Below, piece by piece: positions 2,782-24,757 of a stretch of DNA of 64,000 bases. Both the position numbers and the translations under genes were made by a program. Position 1 is the stretch's first letter. Every line of letters starts with the position of its first letter. Below the pieces are notes generated by a model, which had not been told where the DNA came from, did no database searches, and worked only from the letters and a program-made list of their open reading frames with translations. Source of the DNA: Candidatus Doudnabacteria bacterium. Its GTDB lineage: Bacteria > Patescibacteriota > Doudnabacteria > UBA920. The DNA is taken from positions 650,853-714,852 of the forward strand of contig CAWINB010000004.1 in assembly GCA_963837465.1 (NCBI GenBank), in the 5' to 3' direction.

Positions 2782-3237
2782 ATGCAATTTCCCGTGCCAC
2801 AATTTACGGATGTTGAGGATAAAATCATCGGCTCGCTTACGATTAAGCAGTTTGGGATTTTGTTTGGCGTCGGCATTGTCATTTTTTTGGGCTACTCTGT
2901 TTCCAAAAGCATTTTGGTGGCGATATTTTTGTTTTTGTTGTTCGGCGTGCCGGGTCTGGGCGTGGCCTTTGCCAAAATTAACGGCCGGCCCATATACAGC
3001 AGCATAGGCAATTTTATTAAGTTTTTTACCAGTCCCAAAGTCCTGATTTTTCACAAGGAAACTGTAAGTTCGTCGGCATCGACTGCCGCTTTTAAAGACG
3101 CCCAAATGGCCGCGGCCGAAGTAAAAGTCCAGGCTCCTGTTCCGGCCGAAAACACCCAAACGCATCTTAAACAAGTGGAGGAGCTCCTGAGAAAAACATC
3201 AAACCAGGAACAGGAAATGGCTAATAAAATCCGTTAG
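2782..3237 (+). CDS. PrgI-family protein (T4SS/conjugation-associated small membrane protein)
   Basis: N-terminus MQFPVPQFTDVEDKIIGSLTIKQF followed by two TM helices. Matches the PrgI family as found next to VirB4 in Gram-positive and CPR T4SS loci. Confidence 0.6.
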   Translation: MQFPVPQFTDVEDKIIGSLTIKQFGILFGVGIVIFLGYSVSKSILVAIFLFLLFGVPGLGVAFAKINGRPIYSSIGNFIKFFTSPKVLIFHKETVSSSASTAAFKDAQMAAAEVKVQAPVPAENTQTHLKQVEELLRKTSNQEQEMANKIR

Positions 3238-3270
3238 AATCAGGAGTTAGGAATTATGAGTTAGGGTCCT

Positions 3271-3317
3271 CCCTAACCCCTAACCCCTAACCCCTAACCC
3301 CTAACCCCTAACCCCCT
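3271..3317. repeat. tandem heptamer repeat (CCCCTAA)x~6.5, telomere-like, preceded by hairpin GTTAGGG-TCCT-CCCTAAC
   Basis: Direct reading of the sequence. Lies in the 83-bp gap between prgI-like and virB4-like genes. Confidence 0.95.
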
Positions 3318-4004
3318 CTGATGAAACTAGAAATGCAAAAGAAAAATAAGGCGCCCGGGAAAACCACCCAGAGTTTTTTGCGCTTAAGCGAAATTAAAAA
3401 CGATACCGTGGTGGTGGACGACGGCACTTTGCGCGCCATTATTTCCGTTTCCAGCACCAATTTTGATTTAAAAAGCCAGGATGAGCAGAATTCCATCATC
3501 TTTAACTTCCAGCGTTTTTTAAACTCCCTGGATTTTTCCATCCAGATTTTAATGCAGAGCCGCAAAATGGAAGTCGGGAGCTATATTGAAAAACTCCACC
3601 GTTTGGCGGAAAAACAGACTAACGAACTGCTTCGGGTGCAGACGGCCGAATATATAGAGTTCATTAGCCGCCTTATTGAGAATGCCAGCATTATGAACAA
3701 AAATTTTTACATTATTGTTCCGCTTGGCGAAAGCATTTTTCCCAACGCCGCGGGTTTGTTTAGCCGGCTTTTGGGCAACGGGAAATCAAAGGAGATTAGC
3801 CAGAAAATAGAGAACTTTGAAAAGGCCAAGGAAAAATTGGACACCAGGGTGGTGGCGTTAATGTCCAATTTGTCGGGAATAGGCATCCGCGGCCAGCGGC
3901 TTAAAACCGAGGAAATTATCCAGCTCTATTACAACTCCTATAATTTTGAAGAAGCTCCGCTGGTGGATCCTGGGCAGCTTAAAGATATAAAAATCTCCGA
4001 ATAG

Positions 4005-4487
4005 TTATCAGGATACTGATATACCGATATGAATACGAATGATACCAATAATACGGATTCTAACAACCAACGCGGTGAATTAATTCATGGGGATTTAACA
4101 TATAAAATTAACAGTGTATTATTTTCTACCCACAATGAACTTGGTCCTTACGTCAGGGAAAGCAATATGAAGATGTGGCAAAAAGAATATTTAAAGAAAA
4201 AGGCATTGGTTATGAACAACAGGTTTCTATCGGCGATTCAGGTAATATAGTAGACGGCATTATTGATAAAAAGGTTCTTATTGAATACAAGGCCAAAAGG
4301 ATATTAACTAAAGAAGATTATTATCAAACCCAAAGATACCTTCAGGAAACCGGTTTAAAACTCGCTATTTTAGTCAATTTTAGAGATAAATATATTAAAC
4401 CCAAACGGATTATAAAAATAGATAACTGGAAATATTAGAATCAGTATTATTGGTATCATCTGTATCTTATCCGTATATTAGCATCAT
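4005..4487. mobile_element. 483-bp insertion in virB4 carrying the GxxExxY gene, bounded by inverted words GATACCAATAATAC (about 4050) and GTATTATTGGTATC (about 4450)
   Basis: virB4 N- and C-terminal parts are contiguous in homologues. The inverted repeats were read directly. Related repeat words also occur at 52840-52958. Confidence 0.5.
4029..4438 (+). pseudogene. GxxExxY-family protein (PD-(D/E)XK-like) gene, frameshifted, inside the insertion that splits virB4
   Basis: ORF 4029-4250 (LTYKINSVLFSTHNELGPY) and ORF 4175-4438 (YEDVAKRIF...IEYKAKRILTKEDYYQTQRYLQETGLKLAILVNF) together reconstruct the family consensus. The frames differ near 4160-4175. Confidence 0.6.
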
Positions 4488-6359
4488 ATGTCCATATTCA
4501 GTAAAATCAACGAAGAAGAATTAAAGAAAAAGAAGGAGCAGGTCAGCGAGGCCGAGACCGAGCGGAACTTGAGTTCTTCTTTGGGGGATCTGGAAAAAAC
4601 CTATCGCGAAGGCTTGACTACCCTAAAGGATATTATCGCGCCTTCGGCCCTGAAGTTTGAAAGTTCCCACTTTGAAATTAACGGCAAGTTCGGCCGCAGT
4701 TTTTTCGTGCTGGCTTATCCGCGCTTTTTGTCCAGCAATTGGCTGTCGTTTATTATCCAGGCCGAGGGAGCTTTGGATTTGTCCATGTTTATTTATCCCA
4801 TTGATTCCGCCGACATCCTGAAAAAACTCAAGAGCAAAGTCGGTGAAATCGGCTCGCAAATGTCCATTAACCAGGAAAAAGGCATGGTGCGCGACCCGAT
4901 GCTGGAAACCGCTTACAAAGATGTGGAAAGTTTGCGCGACAACCTCATGCAGGGAACGGAAAAATATTTCCGTTTCGCGCTTTACTTTACCATTTACGCC
5001 AACGACTTAAAGGAGCTGGACAAGTTTTCCTCCACTTTGGAAAGTTCTTTGGGAGCCAAACTTATAGTAACCAAGCGCGCGCTTTTGCAAACGCAAAACG
5101 GCCTTAACTCCAGTCTGCCTTTGGGGCTGGATGAACTGGACGTGGCCAACAATATGAACACCGGCCCGCTGTCTTCCTGCTTTCCTTTCGTGTCTTCCGA
5201 TTTAACCAGCAATGACGGAATTTTATACGGCATCAACCGCCACAATAACAGCCTGATTTTGTTCGATCGCTTTGCCATGGAAAACGCCAATTCCGTGGTG
5301 TTTGCCAAGTCCGGGGCCGGTAAATCTTACGCCGTCAAACTGGAAGTTTTGCGCTCGCTTATGGTGGGTACGGACGTTATTATAGTGGACCCGGAAAACG
5401 AGTACCAGCATTTGGCTTCGGCCGTGGGCGGGACTTATTTGAGCGTGTCGCTGAATTCGGAATTCGCGCATCAACCCTTTTGATTTGCCCACGGGCCTTG
5501 AGGGCGAGGACAGCGCCGATATTTTACGCAGTTCCGTCATCAATCTTTTGGGCTTGCTTAGTCTGATGCTGGGAAAACTTGACCCTACGGAAGAAGCGCT
5601 TATGGACAAGGCCATTTGGCAAACCTATGCCAAAAAAGACATTACGCCGCAACTGGAAGATTTTAAAGGCATAGAGCCTCCGACCATGAACGATTTGATA
5701 GAAATTTTAAACGGCATGGTCGGCGCCGAAAGCCTGGCCCAGCGCTTGTTTAAGTTTACCCAGGGTACTTTTGGCGGCTTGTTAAACCAGCCGACCAACG
5801 TGGTGCTGAACAATCAACTTGTAGTATTTAGCATTCGCGATCTGGAAGAGGAACTGCGGCCGATTGCCATGTACATTATTTTAAATTATATTTGGAATAT
5901 TGTGCGTTCGGAATTAAAGCGCCGAATCCTGGCCGTGGACGAGGCCTGGATTTTAATGCAGCACGAAGATTCGGCCAGGTTTTTGTTCGGCATTGCCAAG
6001 CGCGCGCGCAAATATTACCTGGGCCTGACCACCATTACCCAGGACGTGGCCGATTTTCTGGCCAGCCCGTACGGCAAGCCTATTGTCACCAACTCATCCA
6101 TCCAAATGCTGCTTAAGCAGAGTCCGGCGGCCATTAACGTTATCGCGGAAACGTTTTTTTTAACCGAGGGCGAAAAATACCTGCTGCTGGAAAGCGAAGT
6201 CGGCGAAGGCATCTTTTTTGCCGGCCTCAAGCACGCCGCGATTAAAATTTACGCCTCCTACGTGGAAGACCAGATTATCACCACGGATCCCAAACAGTTG
6301 CTGGAGATTCAGGAGAGCCAGGAGAAGTTGAATTAAATTCATGGATATGACAGATGCCA

Positions 6360-6393
6360 CTGTTTTCACAGACGCGCGCGTCTGTGAAAACAG
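6360..6393. repeat. 34-nt perfect palindrome CTGTTTTCACAGACGCGC|GCGCGTCTGTGAAAACAG
   Basis: Direct reading. Lies between virB4 and the giant downstream gene. Confidence 0.9.
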
Positions 6394-6399
6394 GGTTGT

Positions 6400-9300
6400 T
6401 TGTCTGTCCGTGAATTATTTTTTATGGCGGAAGAAGATTCACAATCAAATATAGGCGTAGCCGATGGGCAAGAAGATGCTGTTAGGTCTGACAAACAACC
6501 AGCCGCGTCTAAAAAATTTATCCCATTGTCGGGTAAACCGCAAATTGTCAGATTGGGGGAAAGCTTTTTGGGCGGCCGGGTGTTAATTGTTAATGTTACA
6601 GTTGGCGGCGAGCCTCTTAATAATGGCATCAAGGTTTATAAAGATTCCGAGATTATTTTTACCGGGCGGGGTTTGGATAATTTAGATTTTTGGGAAGTCA
6701 GCCGGGAGGGGCGCGACTCTCTGCCTTTTACCCGTTTTAGAACAAAAAGTCCGTCCTTGGCTGTATTCAGCCCGCAAGACGCGCTTGGCGCTCTGGAAAA
6801 CGGCGAGAGTTTCGGTATTTCTTTTTTTTCCAGCAAGTACGGCGGGACGATGCGCACATTATCGGCGCTTTTTACTTACGAAACCGAGGAAGCGGACGAA
6901 GAAGCCGCCCGGAAGGCTAAAGCCGCGCGGGCGGCGGCGGAGGCGGCGCAGTCGGAGGGCGGAGGCGGAACTTTGGGTATTTCCCAGTTGATTGATGAAA
7001 GCATTGGCGGGGTGGCTAACGCGGTTGGGAGGGGGTTGCGGAGTTCGGCGAGGTCGGCGGTTTCCGGGACCGCAGGGGCTTACGCTGCCGGTTCTCAAAC
7101 TGTCAGCCAAAAATCAACCACGGAAAGTGCCGGAGGTGGAGGGTATGATGAGGAGACAGCCCAAGTCTCAACCGTAAACGTTCCTTCATCTACCATTGAA
7201 GCTTCTTCGGCGGGCACGCGGGTTGTAAGCCAGTCAGGAACTGTGGGCGGGTCACGCGGCGCGGAGATTACTTCTTCGGGTACGGTTTCAGGGTCGGGTG
7301 GCGGTACAATTTCTTCTTCGGGTACGGTTGAACCGCGAACTCGGGTAGGTGCAACTGCCCAGGTTAGTTCAGCGTCCGGCGGCGGACAAACTTTTGGCGG
7401 CGGGACTGTATCTGCCGGTGGTACGGCATCGGCTCAGGCATTTGTGGAAGCCAGGGTTTCGGGATCAGCTTCGGGACAAGCTTCCGGCGGCGGGCAAGTA
7501 TCGGCTTCTGTTTCAGGCGGGGGCGGAGTTTCATCCGGCGGCGGCGGAAATATTTCCGGACAGGCTTCGGTTCAAAGCGGCGGATCCCAAGCCGCATCGG
7601 CGCGGCCGGTTTCGCAAGGTCTCCAGGGAGGGGGAATATCGTCCGGGCGTCAACAGACAGCGCAGGCTCAGTCAGCCGGACAAAACGCCGGCCAGCAGGC
7701 ACAGACAGTGTCTCAAAATCAGGGCGGGCGGGCAGGATCAACAATTTCCGGCACAGCGCAAACAGCCGTTCCTTCTTTTTCATCAGGGACAAACTTAAAG
7801 ACACAAATAGGTGGCGCGGGCGCAACTTCTCCGGCTGTGCCTAAAAGCCGACCTTTGGCATCGGGAGCACCAGCCACGCCTTTGGGTAGTTTACCGCAAA
7901 ATTTTTCGGGTGCCTCGGGAACTTTTCAGCCCGGTTTAAATTTAGGCGCCAGCACACCCGTGGATGGCATCGCGGTAAACCCTCCCGCGGGCATGGAAGG
8001 CACTTTGAATAAGTTTTTTGAAAACCAGTCGGCTTTGGGCAGGTTAGATTTGGGGCCTGCCGAGAATCAAAATCATGAAATTCAGGGTCAGGAAAGTTCT
8101 TTGCCGGACGGGGAGAATGTAACAGAATCATCTGGATCTCCTGCCTCCGATGGCCAGCCGGAAATTTCAGGCTCCCCGGAAACCGAGCCGGATGTCGCGC
8201 CGCCTTTGTCCGAAGCGGGACTTCCGGGCGAAGGCGCGGGTGGCGAAGGTCAGGGTGGTCAGGAAGGCGCGGTCGATTCGGGGGATTCGGGGTCAGGAGC
8301 TCAATCAGGAAATTCGGAGCCGGGAGCGAAAGGGGGATTGAATGGTCAAACAGAAGGCGGCCAGGGAGGCCCGCCGGATAAAAATGCTCCGACCGGAACA
8401 AAGCCGCCGGGGCAAAATCCCGAAGCGACCGGGGCGCCTGACGCTGCCGTTCCGGGACAGCAGCCCGCCGCGGAGGGAGCCGCTCCGGATTCGGCCGAAG
8501 CAGACGCTTTAGCAGGACCTGAAGCAGACGGGGAAGCGGGAGCTGGCGCGGGGCCCGAGGGAGCCGCCGCGGCAGGGGCCGCGCTTTCCGGCGGCGGGCT
8601 TGATGCCGCCGCCGCGTTGGTCAACACGGAAGTAAATAGTCTTCTCACTGCCGCGGCTTTATGGGTCTGGGGATCGGGGATAGTCAGCTGCGGTTTTACC
8701 ATTGTGCTGGGGGCGCTAGTTGGGGATTTTCTCGTGCTGATGAAGAAGCGGTTGGCCAAAAGGGCTGTCAGCGCGCTTTCGGTAACCAGTTTAGGCGCTG
8801 GGATGAAACTGGCTTCATTTTCAAATGACCAACTGGCGGAAAAAATTAAGTTTAATCTGCCGGTTAAGGCCAATATCGCGGCGATGAACGCGGTAGTGGC
8901 AGTTATGATTTTTGGGGCAATATTTTTTTTCGGTGTGGTGTTATACGCCGGCTGTACCTGGCCGTTGGGCCAGTTCATCAGTTCGGCAACCAATTTTAAA
9001 GCCTCCATTATCGGCGGAATGGGTTATTCCAATGTTTGCCAGGATTTTTTATCGTTCCCCGCCGGACTCAGCGGCGCGGCGCAGGGAGCGACTACTGCCG
9101 GACCGGGTGCGCCATCTCCGAGTACTTCGTCTTCCAGGACTTGCAATGTTTTACCTTCCGGCAATGCCAGCGTGGCGCAATTATCTACTACCTGCTTTGG
9201 CGCTAACGCCTACACCGCCGCTGTTGTTGCGGCGCACGAAAGCGGCGGTACTCCGGGTATTGCCAGCGGTACGGATTATTGCCGTAATCCGGATGGTAGT

Positions 9301-9591
9301 CCGGTAATGATAAACGGTAAAATAGCCTCTGTCTCTTTTGGTTTGTTTCAAATTAATATTACCGCGCATCCTCTTGGAAATTTAAATTGCCCCACTGCTT
9401 TTAGCAACCTTTACACCGGCAGTAATAAGCAATGCCAGATTACAAACCCGAACCTTTACAACCAATGTGTTGCCGCGGCTGAAGACCCCCAGCAAAATAT
9501 CCAGGCCGCCTGCCAAATTTCCAACAATGGTACCAAATGGAGCGCTTGGCAGGCCGATATTAATGCCTGCAATATAAATCCAGGTTCATAA
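6400..9591 (+). CDS. giant secretion-system-associated membrane protein: Gly/Ser/Ala-rich low-complexity N-terminal half, TM helices, C-terminal lytic-transglycosylase-like (SLT/VirB1-like) domain
   Basis: 1063 aa. TM segments lie near residues 735-760 and 800-830. The C-terminus reads AHESGGTPGIASG...SVSFGLFQIN, cf. the SLT E-S...G-L-M-Q motif. The true start may be the ATG at 6424. Confidence 0.55.
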   Translation: MSVRELFFMAEEDSQSNIGVADGQEDAVRSDKQPAASKKFIPLSGKPQIVRLGESFLGGRVLIVNVTVGGEPLNNGIKVYKDSEIIFTGRGLDNLDFWEVSREGRDSLPFTRFRTKSPSLAVFSPQDALGALENGESFGISFFSSKYGGTMRTLSALFTYETEEADEEAARKAKAARAAAEAAQSEGGGGTLGISQLIDESIGGVANAVGRGLRSSARSAVSGTAGAYAAGSQTVSQKSTTESAGGGGYDEETAQVSTVNVPSSTIEASSAGTRVVSQSGTVGGSRGAEITSSGTVSGSGGGTISSSGTVEPRTRVGATAQVSSASGGGQTFGGGTVSAGGTASAQAFVEARVSGSASGQASGGGQVSASVSGGGGVSSGGGGNISGQASVQSGGSQAASARPVSQGLQGGGISSGRQQTAQAQSAGQNAGQQAQTVSQNQGGRAGSTISGTAQTAVPSFSSGTNLKTQIGGAGATSPAVPKSRPLASGAPATPLGSLPQNFSGASGTFQPGLNLGASTPVDGIAVNPPAGMEGTLNKFFENQSALGRLDLGPAENQNHEIQGQESSLPDGENVTESSGSPASDGQPEISGSPETEPDVAPPLSEAGLPGEGAGGEGQGGQEGAVDSGDSGSGAQSGNSEPGAKGGLNGQTEGGQGGPPDKNAPTGTKPPGQNPEATGAPDAAVPGQQPAAEGAAPDSAEADALAGPEADGEAGAGAGPEGAAAAGAALSGGGLDAAAALVNTEVNSLLTAAALWVWGSGIVSCGFTIVLGALVGDFLVLMKKRLAKRAVSALSVTSLGAGMKLASFSNDQLAEKIKFNLPVKANIAAMNAVVAVMIFGAIFFFGVVLYAGCTWPLGQFISSATNFKASIIGGMGYSNVCQDFLSFPAGLSGAAQGATTAGPGAPSPSTSSSRTCNVLPSGNASVAQLSTTCFGANAYTAAVVAAHESGGTPGIASGTDYCRNPDGSPVMINGKIASVSFGLFQINITAHPLGNLNCPTAFSNLYTGSNKQCQITNPNLYNQCVAAAEDPQQNIQAACQISNNGTKWSAWQADINACNINPGS

Positions 9592-9602
9592 TTTCAGCTT
9601 TT

Positions 9603-10079
9603 ATGAAAAAATCCTACAAATTTTTAATCGCGATAATAATTATCGGCTTGTTTGCTTACAGCCTGTACTTCGCGCTGACTTCCAAAAAACAGGTTGCCGC
9701 GCCGGTTGTGACCAGCCAAATAAGCGGGCCGACTTTAACCGTGCCTACGCAAAACGGGAGCAGTACCCAGGTTAGTGATATTACCAAAAATCCCCAGGCA
9801 GTTTTGGGCGACACCGATGTCATTGACCAGAACAGCGGCTACAGCATTGTTTATTTTAGCAAAGACCAAAGCTTTTTGATTACCATTCTTTCGGAGCCGG
9901 CGCAGGAAAACCGGGACGCGGCGGAACAGGAATTGCTCACCAAGCTGCAAGTCAGCCAATCCACGGCCTGCGATTTAAAAGTAGCGCTGACCGTGCCCGC
10001 GGATGTAGACGAAGCGTTATCCGGACAGGACTGGGGCTTAAGTTTTTGTCCCATAGGACAGACATTTCCGATTGAATAA
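9603..10079 (+). CDS. hypothetical secreted/membrane-anchored protein
   Basis: 158 aa with an N-terminal TM/signal sequence (KFLIAIIIIGLFAYSLYFAL). Confidence 0.4.
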   Translation: MKKSYKFLIAIIIIGLFAYSLYFALTSKKQVAAPVVTSQISGPTLTVPTQNGSSTQVSDITKNPQAVLGDTDVIDQNSGYSIVYFSKDQSFLITILSEPAQENRDAAEQELLTKLQVSQSTACDLKVALTVPADVDEALSGQDWGLSFCPIGQTFPIE

Positions 10080-10189
10080 GGTCGTAAAACCATCCCCTTG
10101 AAGGCTGCCTTCAAGGGGAATTTTGCCGCCTTGGATTTTTGTGCTATAATATTTTTATTAACGAAGTATTATCATCGAAATAAAAATAA

Positions 10190-11347
10190 ATGAATAAAAG
10201 AGCTATTGCCATTTTAGGCGTTATTTTTCTTCTTATTGTGGGCACTTTGGGTTTTTTGATTTACGCCAAATATTCGGGCGGCAAAGCAAAAACACCGGCT
10301 GCGCCGTCTTTATCCCAAACCGCTACTTCCACCAGCACGCCTAATTCAACTGCTTCCACCACACCGCCATCAACAAGTCAGGGCATCGGGCAACTGACAA
10401 CCGACCAGGTGGTTTCCCCCGCTTTGTTTTTTAACGACAGCGGCATAACTTATTTTGACAATCAGGGCAATTTGTACCAGTCAACCCTGCAAACCAGCAA
10501 CGGCCAGCTTGAGTTAACCGATAAAAAACAGCTGGATATTCCGGTTAAGGCCAACATTACCAAAATTTTATGGCCGCAAAAAGGCAACGATTTTATAGCG
10601 GAAATTACCGACCCGGCGACCCAAAAAATAAGCTGGAGTTATTTTAACAGCAACAGCGGGGCTTACACGGACTTGCCGCCTCAGGTTGAAAGCGTGGATT
10701 GGATGCCCGACGGAACCCGGATAGCCTACGTTTGGCTGGCTAACGGTAAAGCCAGTTTGAGCATGGGCAATCCCGACGCTACCAGCTACAAAACCCTGGC
10801 TCCCATGTGGGAAACAGACGACACTTTGAGCGTCTCCCCCGACGGCTCGCAGATTTTGTATTACGAAACCAACAATACGGGTTTGACCAACGCCATTAAC
10901 TCCGTCAGCATAGACGGCAAGGTTTGGAAAGGCTTGGTTAAAAGCGGCCAGAATTTTGGGGTTTTGTGGAGCCCGGACGGACAAAAATTTTTGTTTGGCA
11001 AAAAAGATCCGGCCACGCTGCAGTACCAGTTGTGGTATTACAACTTAACTTCCGGCGAAACGGAAAATCTCGGCCTGTTTACCACCGTGGATAAAGCAGT
11101 ATGGGCCGGCGACAGCAATATTATTTACGCCGCCGTGCCCAATTCAACTTCTCCGGCCCAGGGTAGTTTAACCAGCGATAGTTTTTACAGCCTTAACACT
11201 TCCACTTTGGCCAAGCAGCAGTACGGCGTTGGCGTAACTACGGCCATTGACGGCCAGGATTTGTTCTTAAACTCCAGCGGCAACGACTTATTTTTTAAGA
11301 ACGCGCAGGATGGGGGCCTTTACTATCTTGATTTAAGCCAGCAGTAG
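10190..11347 (+). CDS. membrane-anchored PD40/TolB-like beta-propeller repeat protein
   Basis: N-terminal TM. Repeats DWMPDGTRIAY, SVSPDGSQILYY and WSPDGQKFLF. An extended -10 (TGCTATAAT) lies about 40 bp upstream. Confidence 0.5.
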   Translation: MNKRAIAILGVIFLLIVGTLGFLIYAKYSGGKAKTPAAPSLSQTATSTSTPNSTASTTPPSTSQGIGQLTTDQVVSPALFFNDSGITYFDNQGNLYQSTLQTSNGQLELTDKKQLDIPVKANITKILWPQKGNDFIAEITDPATQKISWSYFNSNSGAYTDLPPQVESVDWMPDGTRIAYVWLANGKASLSMGNPDATSYKTLAPMWETDDTLSVSPDGSQILYYETNNTGLTNAINSVSIDGKVWKGLVKSGQNFGVLWSPDGQKFLFGKKDPATLQYQLWYYNLTSGETENLGLFTTVDKAVWAGDSNIIYAAVPNSTSPAQGSLTSDSFYSLNTSTLAKQQYGVGVTTAIDGQDLFLNSSGNDLFFKNAQDGGLYYLDLSQQ

Positions 11348-11381: not shown

Positions 11382-11488
11382 AATTTCAAATTTCCAATTA
11401 CAAATTTCAAATTAATGCCGAGTACCCAATTTTGAATTTGATTGTTGGGGTTTGGTTTGAAATTTGATATTTGCAATTTGGAATTTTT
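11382..11488. repeat. solo copy of the CAAATTTCAAAT inverted-repeat element (no internal gene)
   Basis: Arms AATTTCAAATTTCCAATTACAAATTTCAAATT and TTTGAAATTTGATATTTGCAATTTGGAATT are inverted. Same family as the flanks of the 4HB gene at 2357. Confidence 0.6.
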
Positions 11489-11495
11489 TATTTTT

Positions 11496-12815
11496 ATGCC
11501 TAAAACATCAACAATCTTCGTCTGTTCCAACTGCGGCCACAAGAGTCCCCGCTGGCAGGGCAAATGCCCAAATTGCGGGCAATGGAACACTTTGGAGGAA
11601 AAGCACGAAGCAAAAGCCGGAGGCCGGACTTACAAAGCTTCGCGGATTGTGGATTTGTCTTCCGTGGACGTTGACCAGCGGCCGAGAATAATAACCGGCA
11701 TTGGGGAGTTTGACGAGGTCTTGGGCGGCGGCATTGTGCCGGGCAGTTTGGTGCTCCTGGGCGGTGACCCCGGCATAGGAAAATCCACTTTGGCGCTGCA
11801 GCTTTGCATGAAGGTTAAAGACAGCGTGCTGTATGTTTCGGGCGAGGAGTCGGTTAGCCAGATTAAACTGCGGGCGACGCGGCTGGATAAAAACCACCAA
11901 CTGGGAGTTTTGGCGGAGACCGATTTAGCTGCCATTTTGGCCACAATCCAAAACCAGGATCCGGCGTTGGTAATTTTGGATTCCATCCAAACCATTTACT
12001 CGGCCGAAAGCAGCGGCGTGGCAGGCGGCGTGGCCCAGGTTACCGGCGCGGTACAGCAGGTTATGCGTCTGGCCAAGCAAAACCATATTTCTTTTTTGGT
12101 TATTGGCCATGTAACCAAGGAGGGATATTTGGCCGGGCCCAAGACTTTGGAGCATATGGTGGACACCGTTTTGTATCTGGAAGGAGAACGGTTTGCCAAT
12201 TTCAGGATTTTGCGCTGCGTTAAAAACCGCTTTGGCACCACCAACGAAGTCGGAGTGTTTGAAATGCAGGGGCAGGGGTTGGTGGAAGTAAAAAATCCCT
12301 CCCAACTGTTTTTGGGCGAGGAGCAGTTGCAGGCTTCGGGGAACGTGGTAACTTCGGTTATGGAGGGCAGCCGCGCCCTGCTTTTGGAAATTCAGGCGCT
12401 TACTTCAACTACCAGTTTTGGTTATCCCAAGCGCACTACTGCCGGGTTTGATGTCAATCGTTTACAGTTATTAACCGCCATTCTTTCCAAGCGCGCGGGA
12501 CTGAACCTGTCCAACCAGGATATTTACGTCAACGTGGTCGGCGGCATAAAAATAGACGAGCCAGCCGCGGATTTAGCCGTGGCGCTGGCCATTGTTTCCA
12601 GCCTCAAAGATTCCATAATGTCCGAGACCGTGGCCATAGGCGAACTCGGCCTCTCCGGCGAAGTCCGCTTTGTCCCCAACCTGGAAAAACGCATAAAAGA
12701 AGCCGAAAAACTCGGCTTTAAAAAAATAATCTGCCCGAAAACTAAATTAACATCGCAAAATAAAATTGAGGTGGCGCAGGTTAGGACTTTGGCGGAAGCG
12801 ATTGTGAAAATATAA
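11496..12815 (+). CDS. radA: DNA repair protein RadA/Sms
   Basis: N-terminal zinc finger CSNCGHKSPRWQGKCPNCGQWNT, Walker A GGDPGIGKST, KNRFG motif and a Lon-like C-terminal domain. Confidence 0.9.
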   Translation: MPKTSTIFVCSNCGHKSPRWQGKCPNCGQWNTLEEKHEAKAGGRTYKASRIVDLSSVDVDQRPRIITGIGEFDEVLGGGIVPGSLVLLGGDPGIGKSTLALQLCMKVKDSVLYVSGEESVSQIKLRATRLDKNHQLGVLAETDLAAILATIQNQDPALVILDSIQTIYSAESSGVAGGVAQVTGAVQQVMRLAKQNHISFLVIGHVTKEGYLAGPKTLEHMVDTVLYLEGERFANFRILRCVKNRFGTTNEVGVFEMQGQGLVEVKNPSQLFLGEEQLQASGNVVTSVMEGSRALLLEIQALTSTTSFGYPKRTTAGFDVNRLQLLTAILSKRAGLNLSNQDIYVNVVGGIKIDEPAADLAVALAIVSSLKDSIMSETVAIGELGLSGEVRFVPNLEKRIKEAEKLGFKKIICPKTKLTSQNKIEVAQVRTLAEAIVKI

Positions 12816-13338: not shown

Positions 13339-15393
13339 TCATTCAAAATGTACCACTTTATCTTTTATTTTGTCTTGTAGTAAAGGATATTTTTGTAAAT
13401 TTAGATCATCTTTTAACAGCTTTACAGCTTCCTGGCGGGCTGGTTCTATTAAGGCTGTGTAGCTTGGGTCAAAGTATTTAAAGTTCCAGCCGGCTTGGGC
13501 TTGGCCGTAGATTTCGCCGAAGCCGCGGGTTTTTAGGTCGGCTTCGGCCAGGGCAAAACCATCCTGGATTTTGGTAAAGGATGTTAGGCGGTTTATAGTG
13601 TCAGGGTTTTGGTTGTCTGTAAACAGAAAGCAAAAGCTTTGGTGCTCGGCCCGGCCCACGCGGCCGCGGAACTGGTGGAGCTGGGACAGGCCAAAACGGT
13701 CGGCGCCTTCAATCAACATAACCGAGGCGTTGGGTATGTCCACGCCTACTTCCACCACTGAGGTTGAAACTAAAATATTAATTTTATTGGCCAGGAAATC
13801 GGCCATGACGCTTTCTTTTTCTTTGGATTTCATCCGGCCGTGGAGCAGTCCGATGTTAAACCGCGGGAATATTTTTTTCAGGCTTTCCAGTTCTTTTTTG
13901 GCGGATTTGGTTTCCAATACCGCCGATTGCTCCACCAGCGGCGTAATCACAAAAGCCTGTCTGCCCAAAAGCAGTTGTTTTTTTACAAACTCGTAAGCCT
14001 GGCCGCGGTTTTGGGCCAGGACCAGTTTTGTCAGAATGGGTTTTCTGCCCACCGGCTTGGTTTTAATCTGGGAAATTTCCAGTTCGCCAAAAAAAGCCAG
14101 CTGCAGCGTGCGGGGTATGGGCGTGGCCGATAACGAAAGCAGGTGCGGGACTATTTTAGCGTTTTGCATTAACGCCGCCCGCTGCTCCACGCCAAAACGG
14201 TGCTGCTCGTCTATAATTACAAGAGCCGGATTTTTAAATTTGATATTTTTTTGCAGCAAAGCGTGGGTGCCTATGTAGATTCCCGGCATACCTTGGCTTA
14301 TGAGCATTTGCAATTTATCCTTGCTTAAGGATTCGTCGCCTATCTGGTTATAATTTTGAGTCAGCAGTATGATTTTAAGATTTTGACGGCCCTGGGAACC
14401 GGGCAAAAGTTTTTTTGCCACTTCAAAATGCTGGCGGGCCAAAATTTCCGTGGGCGCCAGAAAAACGGCCTGAAGATTCTGGCTGGCCGCTTCTAAAGAC
14501 GCGATTAAAGCCACCACGGTTTTGCCGCTGCCCACATCCCCCTGCAGCAGCCGGTTCATTGGCACGGGTTTTTCCAAATCCCGCAAAATATCCCAGGCCG
14601 CTTTTTTTTGCTCCACGGTAAGTTTAAAAGGCAGACTATCTACAAATTTTTTTACCAATACTTGGTCAAATTTTACAATATGGGATTTCTTGCGGGCCAG
14701 CTCCATTTTATGCCTTTGCGCCGCCAGCTGGCTTAAAAATATTTCTTCAAAAGCCAGACGTTTTTTCGCGGCCGCTAAAACCTGCTCGCTTTCCGGAAAG
14801 TGGGATTGGCGGATGGTTTGGCTTATATCCATCAGGCCTTGATTTTTTATTACGGCCGCGGGCAATTCGTCCGTCACTTCCCCGGCCAGCGGCAAAATAT
14901 TGGCTACCAGGTTGCGGAAAGTTTTTGGGTACAATCCTTGTTTGAGATGATACAGCGGGACCAAACGCGAGGTGTGCACCGGGAAATCGGCGGCTTTTTC
15001 GTAAATCGGGTTGGTAAGCTGCAGGGAAAAATTGTAATAGTCGGGCTGTCCGGCCAAAAATATTTCATCGCCGGTTTTTAAGCTTTGGGCCAGATACGGC
15101 TGGTTGAACCAGACCACCTTTAAAGATCCGGTTTCATCGCTGACTATGGCTTCAGCCAAAGACATCCGTCCCTTAAAGGAAAAACGGCTGCCGATGCTTT
15201 TAATTTGTACTTTCAGGCTGACGCTTTCGCCGGGCCTGATAGCTTTAATATTAACTACTTTGCTAAAATCCAAATAGCGGTAGGGGAAATACAGCAACAA
15301 ATCCCGGACCGTTAAAATTCCGAGTTTTTTTAAAGCCGCTAATTGCGGCTTTTGAAGTCTGGGCAGGTTTTCGATTGTGTCCGTAAGCTTCAT
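13339..15393 (-). CDS. recG: ATP-dependent DNA helicase RecG
   Basis: Motifs DVGSGKTVVAL, DEQHRFGV, SATPIPRTL and the wedge/OB region. The likely start is MKLTDTIENL at 15393; the ORF track extends to 15483, which would overlap the tRNA. Confidence 0.85.
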   Translation of the reverse strand: MKLTDTIENLPRLQKPQLAALKKLGILTVRDLLLYFPYRYLDFSKVVNIKAIRPGESVSLKVQIKSIGSRFSFKGRMSLAEAIVSDETGSLKVVWFNQPYLAQSLKTGDEIFLAGQPDYYNFSLQLTNPIYEKAADFPVHTSRLVPLYHLKQGLYPKTFRNLVANILPLAGEVTDELPAAVIKNQGLMDISQTIRQSHFPESEQVLAAAKKRLAFEEIFLSQLAAQRHKMELARKKSHIVKFDQVLVKKFVDSLPFKLTVEQKKAAWDILRDLEKPVPMNRLLQGDVGSGKTVVALIASLEAASQNLQAVFLAPTEILARQHFEVAKKLLPGSQGRQNLKIILLTQNYNQIGDESLSKDKLQMLISQGMPGIYIGTHALLQKNIKFKNPALVIIDEQHRFGVEQRAALMQNAKIVPHLLSLSATPIPRTLQLAFFGELEISQIKTKPVGRKPILTKLVLAQNRGQAYEFVKKQLLLGRQAFVITPLVEQSAVLETKSAKKELESLKKIFPRFNIGLLHGRMKSKEKESVMADFLANKINILVSTSVVEVGVDIPNASVMLIEGADRFGLSQLHQFRGRVGRAEHQSFCFLFTDNQNPDTINRLTSFTKIQDGFALAEADLKTRGFGEIYGQAQAGWNFKYFDPSYTALIEPARQEAVKLLKDDLNLQKYPLLQDKIKDKVVHFE

Positions 15394-15475
15394 AAATCCG
15401 TCAGTTTGACAGCCCTCCGCAGTCATCCGCTGCCGCGGATTCCGGCGCGGGACACGTTTTCGCGAAGCGAAAACG

Positions 15476-15552
15476 TGGTGCACCCGGCAGGGATCGAACC
15501 TGCGGCCTTTCCCTTCGGAGGGGAACGCTCTAATCCACTGAGCTACGGATGC
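15476..15552 (-). tRNA. tRNA-Arg (anticodon CCG)
   Basis: Cloverleaf folded by hand: acceptor GCATCCG/CGGGTGC, anticodon loop CTCCGAA, T-loop GGTTCGATCC and a 3' CCA. Confidence 0.85.
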
Positions 15553-22789: not shown

Positions 22790-23320
22790 GTGTTTAAGGC
22801 AAAAAATAAAACCAAGCAGCCGGAAAACGAGCAAAAGGCCTACGAGTATGCCGTGTTTTTGCTGTCTTTGCAGTTAAGGACTGTTGGTGAGGTTAGAAGT
22901 AAGATGGAAGGTCGCGGTTATTCTCCAGCGGTTATCGAAAACGTAACCGAGCAATTACGTAAACAGCGTTATTTGGATGACGAACGCTATGCCGAAGTTT
23001 TTTTGGAAAATTTAAAGCAATACAAAAATTTGGGCTATTATGGCATAAAGAAAAAATTTATGCTTAAAAAGTTGCCCGCTAACATAATCGAAAGAACTTT
23101 GGCCGATGGTTTATCCGTTGAAGAGGAATTAAAAATCGCCAAAAGGCTTTTAAAAAAAGAAGGGGTTGCGGCGGCTTCGTCCGATTCGGATAATAATCAG
23201 GTCGCGGATAATTCTTACGCCATTTTTAGTGAAGATCAGAGCAAACAAAAACAAAAAATCACCCAAAAATTAAGGGTGAGAGGATTTAGAGGAGAGGTTA
23301 TCGCCAGGCTTGTCTATTAA
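22790..23320 (+). CDS. recX: recombination regulator RecX
   Basis: RecX repeats (EQKAYEYAVFLLSLQLRTVGEVRSKMEGRGYSPAVIE...RYLDDERYAEVFLEN). Confidence 0.7.
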   Translation: MFKAKNKTKQPENEQKAYEYAVFLLSLQLRTVGEVRSKMEGRGYSPAVIENVTEQLRKQRYLDDERYAEVFLENLKQYKNLGYYGIKKKFMLKKLPANIIERTLADGLSVEEELKIAKRLLKKEGVAAASSDSDNNQVADNSYAIFSEDQSKQKQKITQKLRVRGFRGEVIARLVY

Positions 23321-23344
23321 GATTGAGGTTGGGGTAAATAAAAT

Positions 23345-23378
23345 CCGGGCCCGCTTACTGGTAGCGAGGCCCGGTTTT
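23345..23378. terminator. bidirectional rho-independent terminator CCGGGCCCGCTTACTGGTAGCGAGGCCCGGTTTT
   Basis: GC stem with T-run on the plus strand and A-run upstream. Confidence 0.7.
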
Positions 23379-23547
23379 GCGGGCAGTGCAAATACCACTA
23401 CCTGCGGGACGCAATCTCATGCGCGAGTGAGATAAGATTCAGCAAGCATCCAGCGAATTCCGGATTGCTTATTCTTAGAGTCTCAAACACTTCAGGTCCT
23501 CTGGTCAGAAGAGCCTGGATTAGACTTTCGTCGCAGAGACTTAGCCG

Positions 23548-24757
23548 ATACCGTTCGGAAATCCGTTGGTGAAATCAGATGTTCCTGTTAAGCTTAAGCG
23601 ATAAAACCAAGGTTTAACCAGTTAACTAAGAAAGGAATCTAGTCATGCCAAAAAAAACGTCGCCATGTTTGTCCACATTGCAGCAGTTTAAAAACAATTA
23701 AATTTGGTAAGGATGGCAAGAGTCATCGCTACCTCTGCCATTTTTGTAAGCGCACCTTTTCCATTTACCACGGCCAGGATTCTCACAACCTTTGGATAGA
23801 GCATATTGACGGCGTGGGCTTTAGACGCTTAGGCGATGAAAACACCCTGTCAGGGCCCCAGACCTACGCGCGCGTCATCACAGAGCTGGATCAGCTGCCA
23901 AAAAACGACTTTTTGACCAAAACCCTCTGTGATTTGGCCCACTGCCAGGGGATTTTAATCCTTGACGGCAAATACATCGCGGTTAAAGGCTTTGAGCGGA
24001 AGATTCCATTCCTGTTCGGCATTGATTACCTGACTCACGATATTTTACACGGAGAATTGTTCTTTTCTGAGGACGAAGCGGCTTTCTCCCAGTACTTTCA
24101 GAAACTAAAAGACCTGGGCTACAACCTTAAAATAGTTGTCGCCGATGACAGAGCAGGCATAAAACAGGCTCTAAACAAGGTCTTTCCCTACGCGCGGCTG
24201 CAGCTCTGCCATGTCCACTTCCTGGAAAACATCCGCGCTGTGCTTAGGGTTAAAACCGAGGAGCGCTACAGACACTTTTTTAATTCACTTAAGCTCCATG
24301 TGTTTACCGAAGGAGCGGATGAGGAAAAAATTGACGCCGGACTGGAGCATGTCTTAAGAAATCATGCCCAACACAGCCCCAAACTCCAGGATATTATCTG
24401 GGAAGTTAAGCGTAGACGCGAAGCCTTGTTTAATTACCTGAAAGTCAAAGACTGTCCCAACAACACCAACCTCATAGAACTTTTTAATTCCCACTTAAAC
24501 GGCCGCCTTAAAACCATCAAGGGTTTCCAGAGTTTTAAGTCGGCAAATCGCTGGCTTAACGCCTGGATGATTCGGCGCCGCAGCAAGACTTTTACCGATT
24601 GCGACAAAAAATTTAAATATTTAAACAAACACTGCTCCCTGGAATTTACCATTAAAAAACAGGCCCTGTGGCCTGAAACTTTAAAAACTTTAGGAATTAA
24701 CAAAATAAATTTTTTCGAAAAAAGCGATTACTAACAACGGATTCCCGAACGGTAACC
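23548..24757. mobile_element. IS1-family-like insertion sequence (about 1.2 kb) with imperfect terminal inverted repeats TACCGTTCGG(A/G)AATCCGTTG
   Basis: IRL 23548-23568 vs IRR 24735-24757 (19/20 match). Encodes one transposase with an InsA-like zinc ribbon and an InsB-like DDE domain. Confidence 0.65.
23645..24734 (+). CDS. IS1-family transposase (InsA-like Zn-ribbon fused to InsB-like DDE domain); frame broken in an A-run at 23650-23657
   Basis: Zinc ribbon CPHCSSLKTIKFGKDGKSHRYLCHFCKRTFS, cf. IS1 InsA ...[20 protein letters not shown]. DDE region ILDGKYIAVKG / IVVADDRAGIK / IELFNSHLNGRLKTIKGFQSF, cf. InsB MDEQWGYVGAK / WMTDGW / [22 protein letters not shown]. The ATG at 23645 is +1 out of frame with the body. 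The A-run is the only place they can be joined. Confidence 0.6.

Follow-up and report, generated by a model that had tools for sequence, protein, structure and literature searches.

A likely chromosomal type IV secretion system locus in Candidatus Doudnabacteria, with a frameshifted virB4 and an SLT_3-tailed membrane protein

We analysed a 64,000-nucleotide stretch of a Candidatus Doudnabacteria genome (contig CAWINB010000004.1 of assembly GCA_963837465.1, positions 650,853 to 714,852; hereafter the window), and the region leading up to its radA gene is very likely the 3′ two-thirds of a chromosomal type IV secretion system (T4SS) locus of the Patescibacteria clade (class ABY1), derived from MPF-FATA (monoderm) conjugation systems with loss of the conjugation functions. 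The cluster is genuine, and it is of an already described kind that leaves the basic picture unchanged. On the + strand, on which all locus features lie unless another strand is named, it reads ORFa and ORFb (open reading frames, ORFs), a four-helix-bundle gene, PrgI, a TrsD/TraC-like gene, a GxxExxY cassette, virB4, a large membrane protein gene, p158, PD40 and radA (11442-12815), followed by recG (13339-15483) on the − strand; radA and recG are named after the annotations of relatives.

Patescibacteria T4SSs include PrgI/VirB3, VirB6, VirB1-like hydrolases and VirB2-like pilins, with no relaxases (Quiñonero-Coronel et al. 2025, PMC12102498); their most abundant VirB4-associated component is TrsD, a separate protein homologous to the VirB4 N-terminus, and those of class ABY1 are reported to adjoin radA, recG and comF (PMC12102498). 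They are among the few systems shown to be essential for an epibiotic lifestyle: Southlakia epibionticum depends on its T4SS to grow as an epibiont (Wang et al. 2023, as cited in PMC12857230), while the role of the system is given as unknown (PMC12857230, PMC11665869). A 2026 preprint (10.64898/2026.06.21.733656) describes tubular structures, possibly T4SS pili, at the parasite-host interface and proposes RNA uptake. The initial annotation, which was made from the sequence of the window, had suggested the cell-surface apparatus of an episymbiont, and this agrees with the published Patescibacteria systems (PMC12102498, PMC12857230).

Comparison with related T4SS loci, as the initial annotation had proposed, revealed one conserved gene order. 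Three long contigs (L004, L006 and L007), along with 80 loci taken from GTDB genomes at species level, share the order TrbL_3, (ORFa), ORFb, PrgI, TraC-like, VirB4, a variable protein, PD40, RadA and RecG. TrbL_3 of the relatives is a VirB6-like polytopic protein of 1000-1400 amino acids (aa), encoded ~2.5-4 kb upstream of PrgI; no TrbL_3 homologue was found in the window, which begins just past the position of the VirB6-like gene, and the interval originally delimited (2782-11347) thus spans only part of the locus. Both component assignments of the initial annotation, PrgI-like and VirB4-like, held up in profile searches. The PrgI-family (VirB3-like) small membrane protein (2782-3237) matches PF12666 (E=1.9e-10; 41.5 bits, gathering score 27) and is present in 73 related loci. 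The TrsD/TraC-like protein (3321-4004; 227 aa) is homologous to the VirB4 N-terminal domain and matches the NCBIfam TrsD family (E=2.3e-7); relatives carry PF26593 (TraC-like) here. It also matches the N-terminal 90 positions of a PHROGs family annotated as terminase large subunit (phrog_2666, E=1.7e-8).

The virB4 gene (4488-6336) codes for an MPF-FATA/CD1110-type T4SS ATPase, with one net +1-nt insertion and 615 aa once repaired. Three VirB4-related ORFs are collinear on the CD1110-type profile of 752 positions, with 3321-4004 matching positions 9-136, 4488-5483 matching 176-475, and 5485-6336 matching 488-728. Profile NF045971 matches the two virB4 halves (E=1.6e-55, 188.7 bits; E=2.8e-41, 141.6 bits), each below its 325-bit cut-off and together at ~330 bits. 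Searching with the VirB4 pieces joined into one query returned more than 7,500 matches, of which the best 120 are intact proteins of ~615 aa, 83-93% identical, covering 73% of the query (fragments 2 and 3 only); several are named Candidatus Doudnabacteria, and some carry the name VirB4/TraC in Doudnabacteria. The initial annotation described a doubly broken ATPase gene, and of these two breaks only the second is a lesion. Because all 77 related loci that cover the TrsD/TraC-like gene have it as an ORF of its own (224-255 aa where complete), the first break is a natural gene boundary, and the gap at 4005-4487 is the normal intergenic spacer before virB4, filled by the GxxExxY cassette. An intron or intein inserted in virB4 at 4005-4487 was considered and rejected, as Rfam returned nothing and the relatives have an intergenic spacer there. 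The correction matters for annotation, since a TrsD-like gene alongside virB4 is the usual arrangement and should not be labelled a pseudogene.

The second break is a true +1 frameshift, caused by one extra base in GAATTCGGAATTCG (5453-5466; doublets at 5459-5464) that leads to a TGA at 5481-5483. At the DNA level, relatives read SLNS-xS-RINPFDL at this site and the window has a net +1 nt; a 7-nt tandem duplication (GAATTCG, twice) was rejected as the lesion, as relatives have two extra codons there (LNS-xS-R) and a single extra base remains. The frameshift is absent from all 78 related VirB4-encoding loci, in each of which the gene is a single ORF, and from 120 protein clusters. Once repaired, the protein carries no private substitution at any column that 109 sequences otherwise share without change (fully invariant columns: 314 of 625), and VirB4 is the most conserved protein of the locus, with 86-93% identity between the window and L004, L006 and L007, as against 73-78% for RadA and 66-72% for RecG. 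As the lesion is absent from relatives and the repaired gene is without decay, it must be very young. Logan contig L008 (run ERR10755945) carries both the virB4 extra base and a frameshift in the GxxExxY gene, and stops 3 nt past the extra base; it may share reads with the window assembly. The long housekeeping genes of the window (ClpB, SecA, GatA, GatB, ProRS, PBP2 and RecG) are intact, which, together with the presence of both frameshifts in a second assembly, speaks against a general sequencing indel error, although the reads may be shared and an error could still underlie both. The virB4 frameshift could thus reflect inactivation in the very recent past, variation between strains, or an error in the consensus or the sequencing. 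An exact-sequence look-up of the 331-aa VirB4 fragment and of the 1055-aa large protein gave no match. Among relatives, some VirB4 ORFs reach 750-1100 aa with N- or C-terminal extensions (L083 8510-11836, L030 2212-4644, L072 5369-7987, and proteins P0106, P0117 and P0118); these could be fusions or artefacts of choosing the longest ORF.

Downstream of virB4 lies the gene for the large membrane protein, an open ORF starting either at ATG 6424 (6424-9591; 1055 aa) or at TTG 6400 (6400-9591; 1063 aa); ATG 6424 is the likely start because relatives begin MA(D/E). The initial description of a 1063-aa protein with low complexity and transmembrane helices stands. AlphaFold2 models, numbered from ATG 6424, predict an N-terminal Ig-like beta-sandwich (aa 38-153; predicted local distance difference test score (pLDDT) 88-96) followed by a helix (aa 155-179), and a fold search with the N-terminal domain returned generic Ig-like/IPT matches only. 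The middle is ~550 aa of low complexity rich in Gly, Ser, Ala, Thr, Gln and Pro. Numbered from TTG 6400, two hydrophobic segments come next, aa 748-782 and aa 820-856, and KKRLAKR lies between the two; AlphaFold2 places three helices in this region (aa 736-856). The transmembrane-region family comprises 45 clusters among 1.84 billion representative proteins, mostly of 800-1250 aa; a homology search with aa 700-1063 gave six matches, low-complexity words having probably saturated the candidate list. The homologues with pilin and SLT_3 domains described below suggested that the transmembrane region could be a VirB2-like pilin domain, and we rejected this: it has no match to T4SS_pilin (PF18895) or TrbC at E<=1, our own pilin profile (89 sequences) found nothing in the window, and the alignment is poor. 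Across the 80 loci, the protein after VirB4 consistently lacks a signal peptide and has an acidic N-terminus, low complexity and 1-3 hydrophobic segments, with lengths of ~250-430 aa in a distant clade and 800-1218 aa in the near clade. It is only 21-37% identical between genomes whose VirB4 proteins are 86-93% identical.

The protein ends in a Cys-rich, lysozyme-like SLT_3 domain (aa 934-1050 from TTG 6400; nt ~9199-9549), which bears out the SLT-like C-terminus of the initial annotation at the level of family membership. PF18896 scores 28.3 bits when the whole protein is searched and 32.6 bits (E=1.1e-7) with the domain by itself, above the gathering score of 27, and most of the 181 homologues of the domain are annotated PF18896. 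The Glu-Ser pair, the GLxQIN motif and eight Cys are invariant in a seven-sequence SLT_3 alignment, and E213-S214, G247, L248, Q250, N252 and three Cys are invariant across 86 SLT_3 sequences. PF01464 (SLT) gives a sub-threshold match over the same motifs (E=0.022), and AlphaFold2 models the domain at pLDDT 96-98. Profile and motifs in the sequence establish membership in the SLT_3 family. This head is only one of several: across the 80 loci, the tail of the protein encoded after virB4 is SLT_3, canonical SLT, Peptidase_M15 or none of these. SLT_3 heads occur in the window and 10 related loci, a canonical SLT head (PF01464) in L080 (E=5e-18), L009 (7e-6) and L036 (5e-7), a canonical SLT tail of the QKESGG...GIGLTQ type in about 10 further loci, and a Peptidase_M15 head in L039 (E=9e-28). 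Genes for DsbA-like thioredoxins lie 3′ of the hydrolase-headed protein in L039 (13856-14674), L041 (14034-14810) and L080 (14605-15420), which fits disulfide-rich extracellular heads. By these sequence features and by analogy with VirB1 and PrgK, the large protein is probably the cell-wall hydrolase of the locus.

Presence of a head goes together with a small partner gene. In the window this is p158 (9603-10079), a 158-aa protein without a family match, predicted to be membrane anchored with ~110 extracellular residues. Homologues of p158 are found in all 11 SLT_3-head loci (10 related loci and the window), in one canonical-SLT locus (L080), and in none of the headless loci; more broadly, every headed locus has one extra small membrane-anchored gene before PD40 and the headless loci have none. 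The QKESGG-type canonical SLT heads pair with a different family of ~180 aa, L080 with its p158 homologue being the exception, and kinship between the two partner families was rejected as their membrane anchors alone align. Homologues of p158 also lie directly 3′ of genes for pilin-SLT_3 proteins in four of four unrelated Patescibacteria contigs (E=3e-28 to 3e-40), and the window lineage therefore appears to have grafted SLT_3 and p158 together onto a VirB4-adjacent membrane protein. These four pairs (L002 7628-9245, L003 3950-5381, L089 4001-5403 and L090 4001-5432) sit in arrays of VirB2-like pilin genes by gyrA and a solute-binding protein gene. We speculate that p158 might act in inhibition or immunity, as a chaperone, or as a structural subunit in the PrgL/VirB8 position. 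More tentatively still, the large protein might be a host-directed, fast-evolving breaching arm whose head is swapped between species as a cassette with its cognate partner (SLT_3 with p158, canonical SLT with the 180-aa family), the partner being an immunity protein, an inhibitor or a chaperone; we hold this to be a long shot, and if true, head swapping would follow host range.

In the mechanism that we propose for a Patescibacteria-clade T4SS of this composition, a VirB4 hexamer would dock on PrgI and the VirB6-like channel and power transfer of macromolecules between epibiont and host; effector export and nucleic-acid import have both been proposed in the literature on these systems. The large protein would act as the VirB1/PrgK-type wall hydrolase of the machine, anchored by two or three helices, its peptidoglycan-cutting head outside the membrane and opening either the epibiont's own wall or that of the host. 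The head would be modular, the SLT_3 head having been gained together with p158 from pilin-SLT_3/p158 operons. A number of observations weigh against this picture. The virB4 frameshift may leave the sampled strain without a working machine, and the VirB6-like gene would lie outside the window, as judged from the relatives only. Neither the direction of transport nor the substrate can be read from the sequence. The topology of the large protein is ambiguous: it has no signal peptide, and an Ig-like domain with a long Gly/Ser-rich region would suit a surface protein better than a cytoplasmic tail. Because many sister species are headless, wall cutting cannot be its only or core role. As to the fold of the SLT_3 domain, Foldseek found no match in the PDB, the BFVD matches (an SLT-domain protein and a lysozyme) are weak (E=0.1-0.7), and hhalign against C-type lysozymes gives 38% probability; a PDB profile match to human lysozyme (E=0.047), which aligns the Glu-Ser pair and G(I/L)FQIN, is lost with a deeper alignment.

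The frameshift might have a graver meaning, namely that the locus is a decaying, non-functional remnant: the virB4 lesion would be genuine and fixed, and this lineage would no longer have the T4SS-like machine. VirB4 is truncated after its Walker A region, the frameshift is in both assemblies (window and L008), the housekeeping genes are intact and hence indel errors are not general, and the neighbouring GxxExxY gene is frameshifted too. However, PrgI, the TraC-like gene, the 1063-aa ORF, p158 and PD40 are all open with no further lesion; the repaired VirB4 lacks private substitutions at invariant positions, and its gene is the most conserved of the locus and a single ORF in all 78 related loci that encode it. 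The end of the Logan contig 3 nt past the extra base fits a polymorphic site, and the two assemblies may rest on the same reads. We consider decay unlikely, if worth keeping in mind. A different view of the large protein, as mainly a surface fibre or adhesin, would place its Ig-like domain and Gly/Ser stalk outside the cell on two helices, N-out/C-out as in a pilin, with the hydrolase head an accessory. The confidently predicted beta-sandwich (pLDDT 88-96) followed by ~550 aa of Gly/Ser/Thr/Ala/Gln low complexity would suit such a fibre, the position of KKRLAKR past the first hydrophobic segment agrees with a cytoplasmic loop joining two helices, the 21-37% identity between genomes is as expected of a host-facing protein, and many relatives do without the head. 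Yet there is no signal peptide and no known export route for a 740-aa N-terminal tail, the three helices of the AlphaFold2 model imply N-in/C-out, and the transmembrane region matches neither T4SS_pilin at E<=1 nor our own profile, so that we regard a primarily adhesive role as rather improbable.

The flanking genes raise the question of whether the cluster is instead a DNA-uptake machine, a T4SS employed in the manner of ComB or Ced to deliver incoming DNA to the neighbouring RadA and RecG. Both genes flank the locus in the window and in ~60-70 relatives, the ABY1 association extends to comF (PMC12102498), a profile of CedB, which serves archaeal DNA import, weakly matches both VirB4 halves (E=3.6e-4 and 4.6e-5), and nucleic-acid import is discussed for Patescibacteria T4SSs (PMC11665869; preprint 10.64898/2026.06.21.733656). 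But adjacency alone is a weak argument, RadA and RecG being housekeeping proteins, and the CedB matches fall far under the family cut-off. In S. epibionticum the T4SS is essential and the ComEC competence system dispensable (PMC12857230), so the essentiality there does not come from transformation, and DNA uptake seems to us a doubtful purpose for the cluster. Least credible of all is that the cluster belongs to an integrative conjugative element or a plasmid-derived island, as the label conjugation-like in the initial annotation would imply if taken to mean a mobile element. VirB4, PrgI and TrsD are homologous to Gram-positive conjugation proteins, and a Mutator-family transposase fragment lies at 23814-24734. 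Against this, the scanned ORFs of the window, which include all those of at least 450 aa and leave 17 ORFs of 150-306 aa unscanned, yielded no relaxase, coupling protein or integrase; every ORF of at least 450 aa is a housekeeping gene or the large protein. The locus occupies the same chromosomal site in ~70 related species, VirB4 divergence follows that of the housekeeping genes, and the composition matches the rest of the window save for a rise in G+C fraction to 0.54-0.55 at 6-10 kb, which coincides with the Gly/Ala/Ser-rich coding of the large ORF. Since the scanned part of the 64 kb holds no relaxase or coupling protein and the site is fixed in ~70 species, the locus is not a conjugative element, and we retain the Patescibacteria-clade T4SS reading.

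The initial annotation placed a PD40 propeller gene and two low-complexity ORFs upstream; the two ORFs are indeed upstream (23-1126 and 1155-2330), outside the interval that it delimited, whereas PD40 (10190-11347) is downstream of the large protein. ORFa (23-1126; 367 aa) is of low complexity, lies between the TrbL_3/VirB6-like position and ORFb, and has weak phmmer homologues at the same position in nine related loci. ORFb (1155-2330; 391 aa) is Pro-rich with a conserved C-terminal part and, with a homologue directly 5′ of PrgI in 64 related loci, is a conserved unannotated member of the locus. PD40 codes for a membrane-anchored PD40/TolB-like beta-propeller (PF07676 E=1.1e-7; TolB profile E=1.1e-7) and is the conserved last gene before radA, found in 69 related loci. 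PHROGs, Pfam and NCBIfam gave no match for p158, ORFa, ORFb or the N-terminal domain of the large protein. Elsewhere in the window the annotated genes are housekeeping genes (ClpB, SecA, GatA/B, ProRS, MreB/C, PBP2, FolD, RseP and MiaA). The Mutator-family ORF (23814-24734) matches only positions 158-367 of the 379-position profile and is probably truncated or broken, with a 176-aa ORF just upstream (window 22790-24734). Many of the contigs L010-L083 are titled 'uncultured Candidatus Saccharibacteria bacterium', yet by VirB4 and synteny they group with Doudnabacteria metagenome-assembled genomes, and the titles look like a generic pipeline label.

Two spacers of the operon are occupied by small cassettes bounded by inverted repeats. 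The four-helix-bundle cassette (2333-2757; gene 2357-2725) codes for a 23S rRNA intervening-sequence protein (TIGR02436 E=4.4e-17; PF05635 E=6.8e-11); its 33-nt inverted repeats (2333-2365/2725-2757) are 85% complementary, and the RNA fold closes on this stem. We take PF05635 proteins to resemble the Avd proteins of diversity-generating retroelements. The GxxExxY cassette (4012-4487) has an ORF at 4029-4438 for a PD-(D/E)XK protein (PDDEXK_3; TIGR04256 E=3.5e-10 on 4175-4438), frameshifted between ~4150 and 4175; a single-base repair restores one 136-aa ORF. Its closing stem is ~50 bp (4012-4063/4435-4487), with an inverted repeat of 31 nt (90%) and a fold z-score of −2.9. Among related loci, flanking inverted repeats accompany 12 of 16 GxxExxY cassettes and seven of nine four-helix-bundle cassettes, compared with about six of 520 other genes. 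The insertion sites vary by genome (after TrbL_3, after ORFb, between PrgI and TraC-like, and between TraC-like and VirB4), and the cassettes are limited to a clade with VirB4 at least 82% identical to that of the window. The four-helix-bundle cassette recurs in L001 and L004; the cassettes of L004 lie at 7674-8145 and 8618-9195, and others were seen in L009-L078, with inverted repeats of 30-50 nt; in L006/L034 a GIY-YIG gene without inverted repeats stands in place of a cassette. The cassettes look like rRNA intervening sequences (IVSs) moved into mRNA spacers, and by analogy they may be mobile and processed by RNase III. Like 23S rRNA IVSs with their S23p/four-helix-bundle proteins, for example the 428-nt element of Coxiella burnetii (PMC4990558), they are ~420-480 nt long, are closed by a long stem at their ends and encode a protein of the PF05635 or GxxExxY family; unlike them, they lie between protein-coding genes of an operon, and no rRNA or Rfam family was found in the locus region.

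Other spacers have structure of their own. That between PrgI and the TraC-like gene (3237-3319) runs GAGTTAGG..GAGTTAGGG and then into a (CCCTAAC)x7 tandem repeat, which from its sequence could form a hairpin, or a G-quadruplex on the opposite strand; in some relatives this spacer carries a PDDEXK_3 or GIY-YIG gene. A perfect 15-bp GC-rich hairpin, CTGTTTTCACAGACGCGCGCGTCTGTGAAAACAG (6360-6393), with only a weak T tail, separates virB4 from the large gene; by its sequence it could be a terminator, an attenuator or an mRNA-stabilising hairpin.

What the locus adds to the known Patescibacteria T4SSs is the exchangeable hydrolase heads, the pairing of SLT_3 with p158, and the IVS-like cassettes in operon spacers. 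The first two, together with a VirB4 under stronger constraint than RadA or RecG, point to host-facing parts set against a conserved motor. Like the Patescibacteria-clade T4SSs of PMC12102498, the locus combines an MPF-FATA-type VirB4 with PrgI/VirB3 and a TrsD-like protein that has a gene of its own, is preceded by a VirB6-like gene (as seen in relatives) and encodes a peptidoglycan hydrolase directly 3′ of virB4; it also has no relaxase, is chromosomal, and shows the ABY1 association with radA and recG. It differs in that the hydrolase is the head of a ~1060-aa protein that also has an Ig-like domain and a low-complexity part of ~550 aa, and in that this head is SLT_3, probably missed by the VirB1 profiles of PMC12102498. 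In addition, the window has no VirB2-like pilin genes, and its virB4 is frameshifted.

In Enterococcus pCF10 the order is VirB6-like PrgH, VirB3-like PrgI, the VirB4 protein PrgJ, the wall hydrolase PrgK, and a small membrane-anchored protein in the PrgL position. The succession of TrbL_3 (in relatives), PrgI, VirB4, the hydrolase-headed protein and p158 parallels this PrgH-PrgL order of the pCF10 Prg/Pcf conjugative system, and the split into TraC-like and VirB4 parallels that of TrsD and TrsE in Staphylococcus pGO1 of the pGO1/pSK41 Trs conjugative systems (TrsD according to PMC12102498); both kinds are MPF-FATA prototypes. Unlike both, the window locus is fixed in the chromosome, without a relaxase, a coupling protein (among scanned ORFs), an origin of transfer (oriT) or an adhesin, and its hydrolase has a single SLT_3 head instead of SLT plus CHAP or LytM, and a huge low-complexity N-terminal part. 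The pilin-SLT_3 proteins of Patescibacteria (PF18895 plus PF18896) have SLT_3 domains 48-58% identical to that of the window and, like it, are followed by a p158-family gene; however, they are proteins of ~290 aa with a signal peptide, a VirB2-like pilin and SLT_3, encoded in pilin arrays by gyrA, whereas the window protein has no detectable pilin domain and adjoins virB4.

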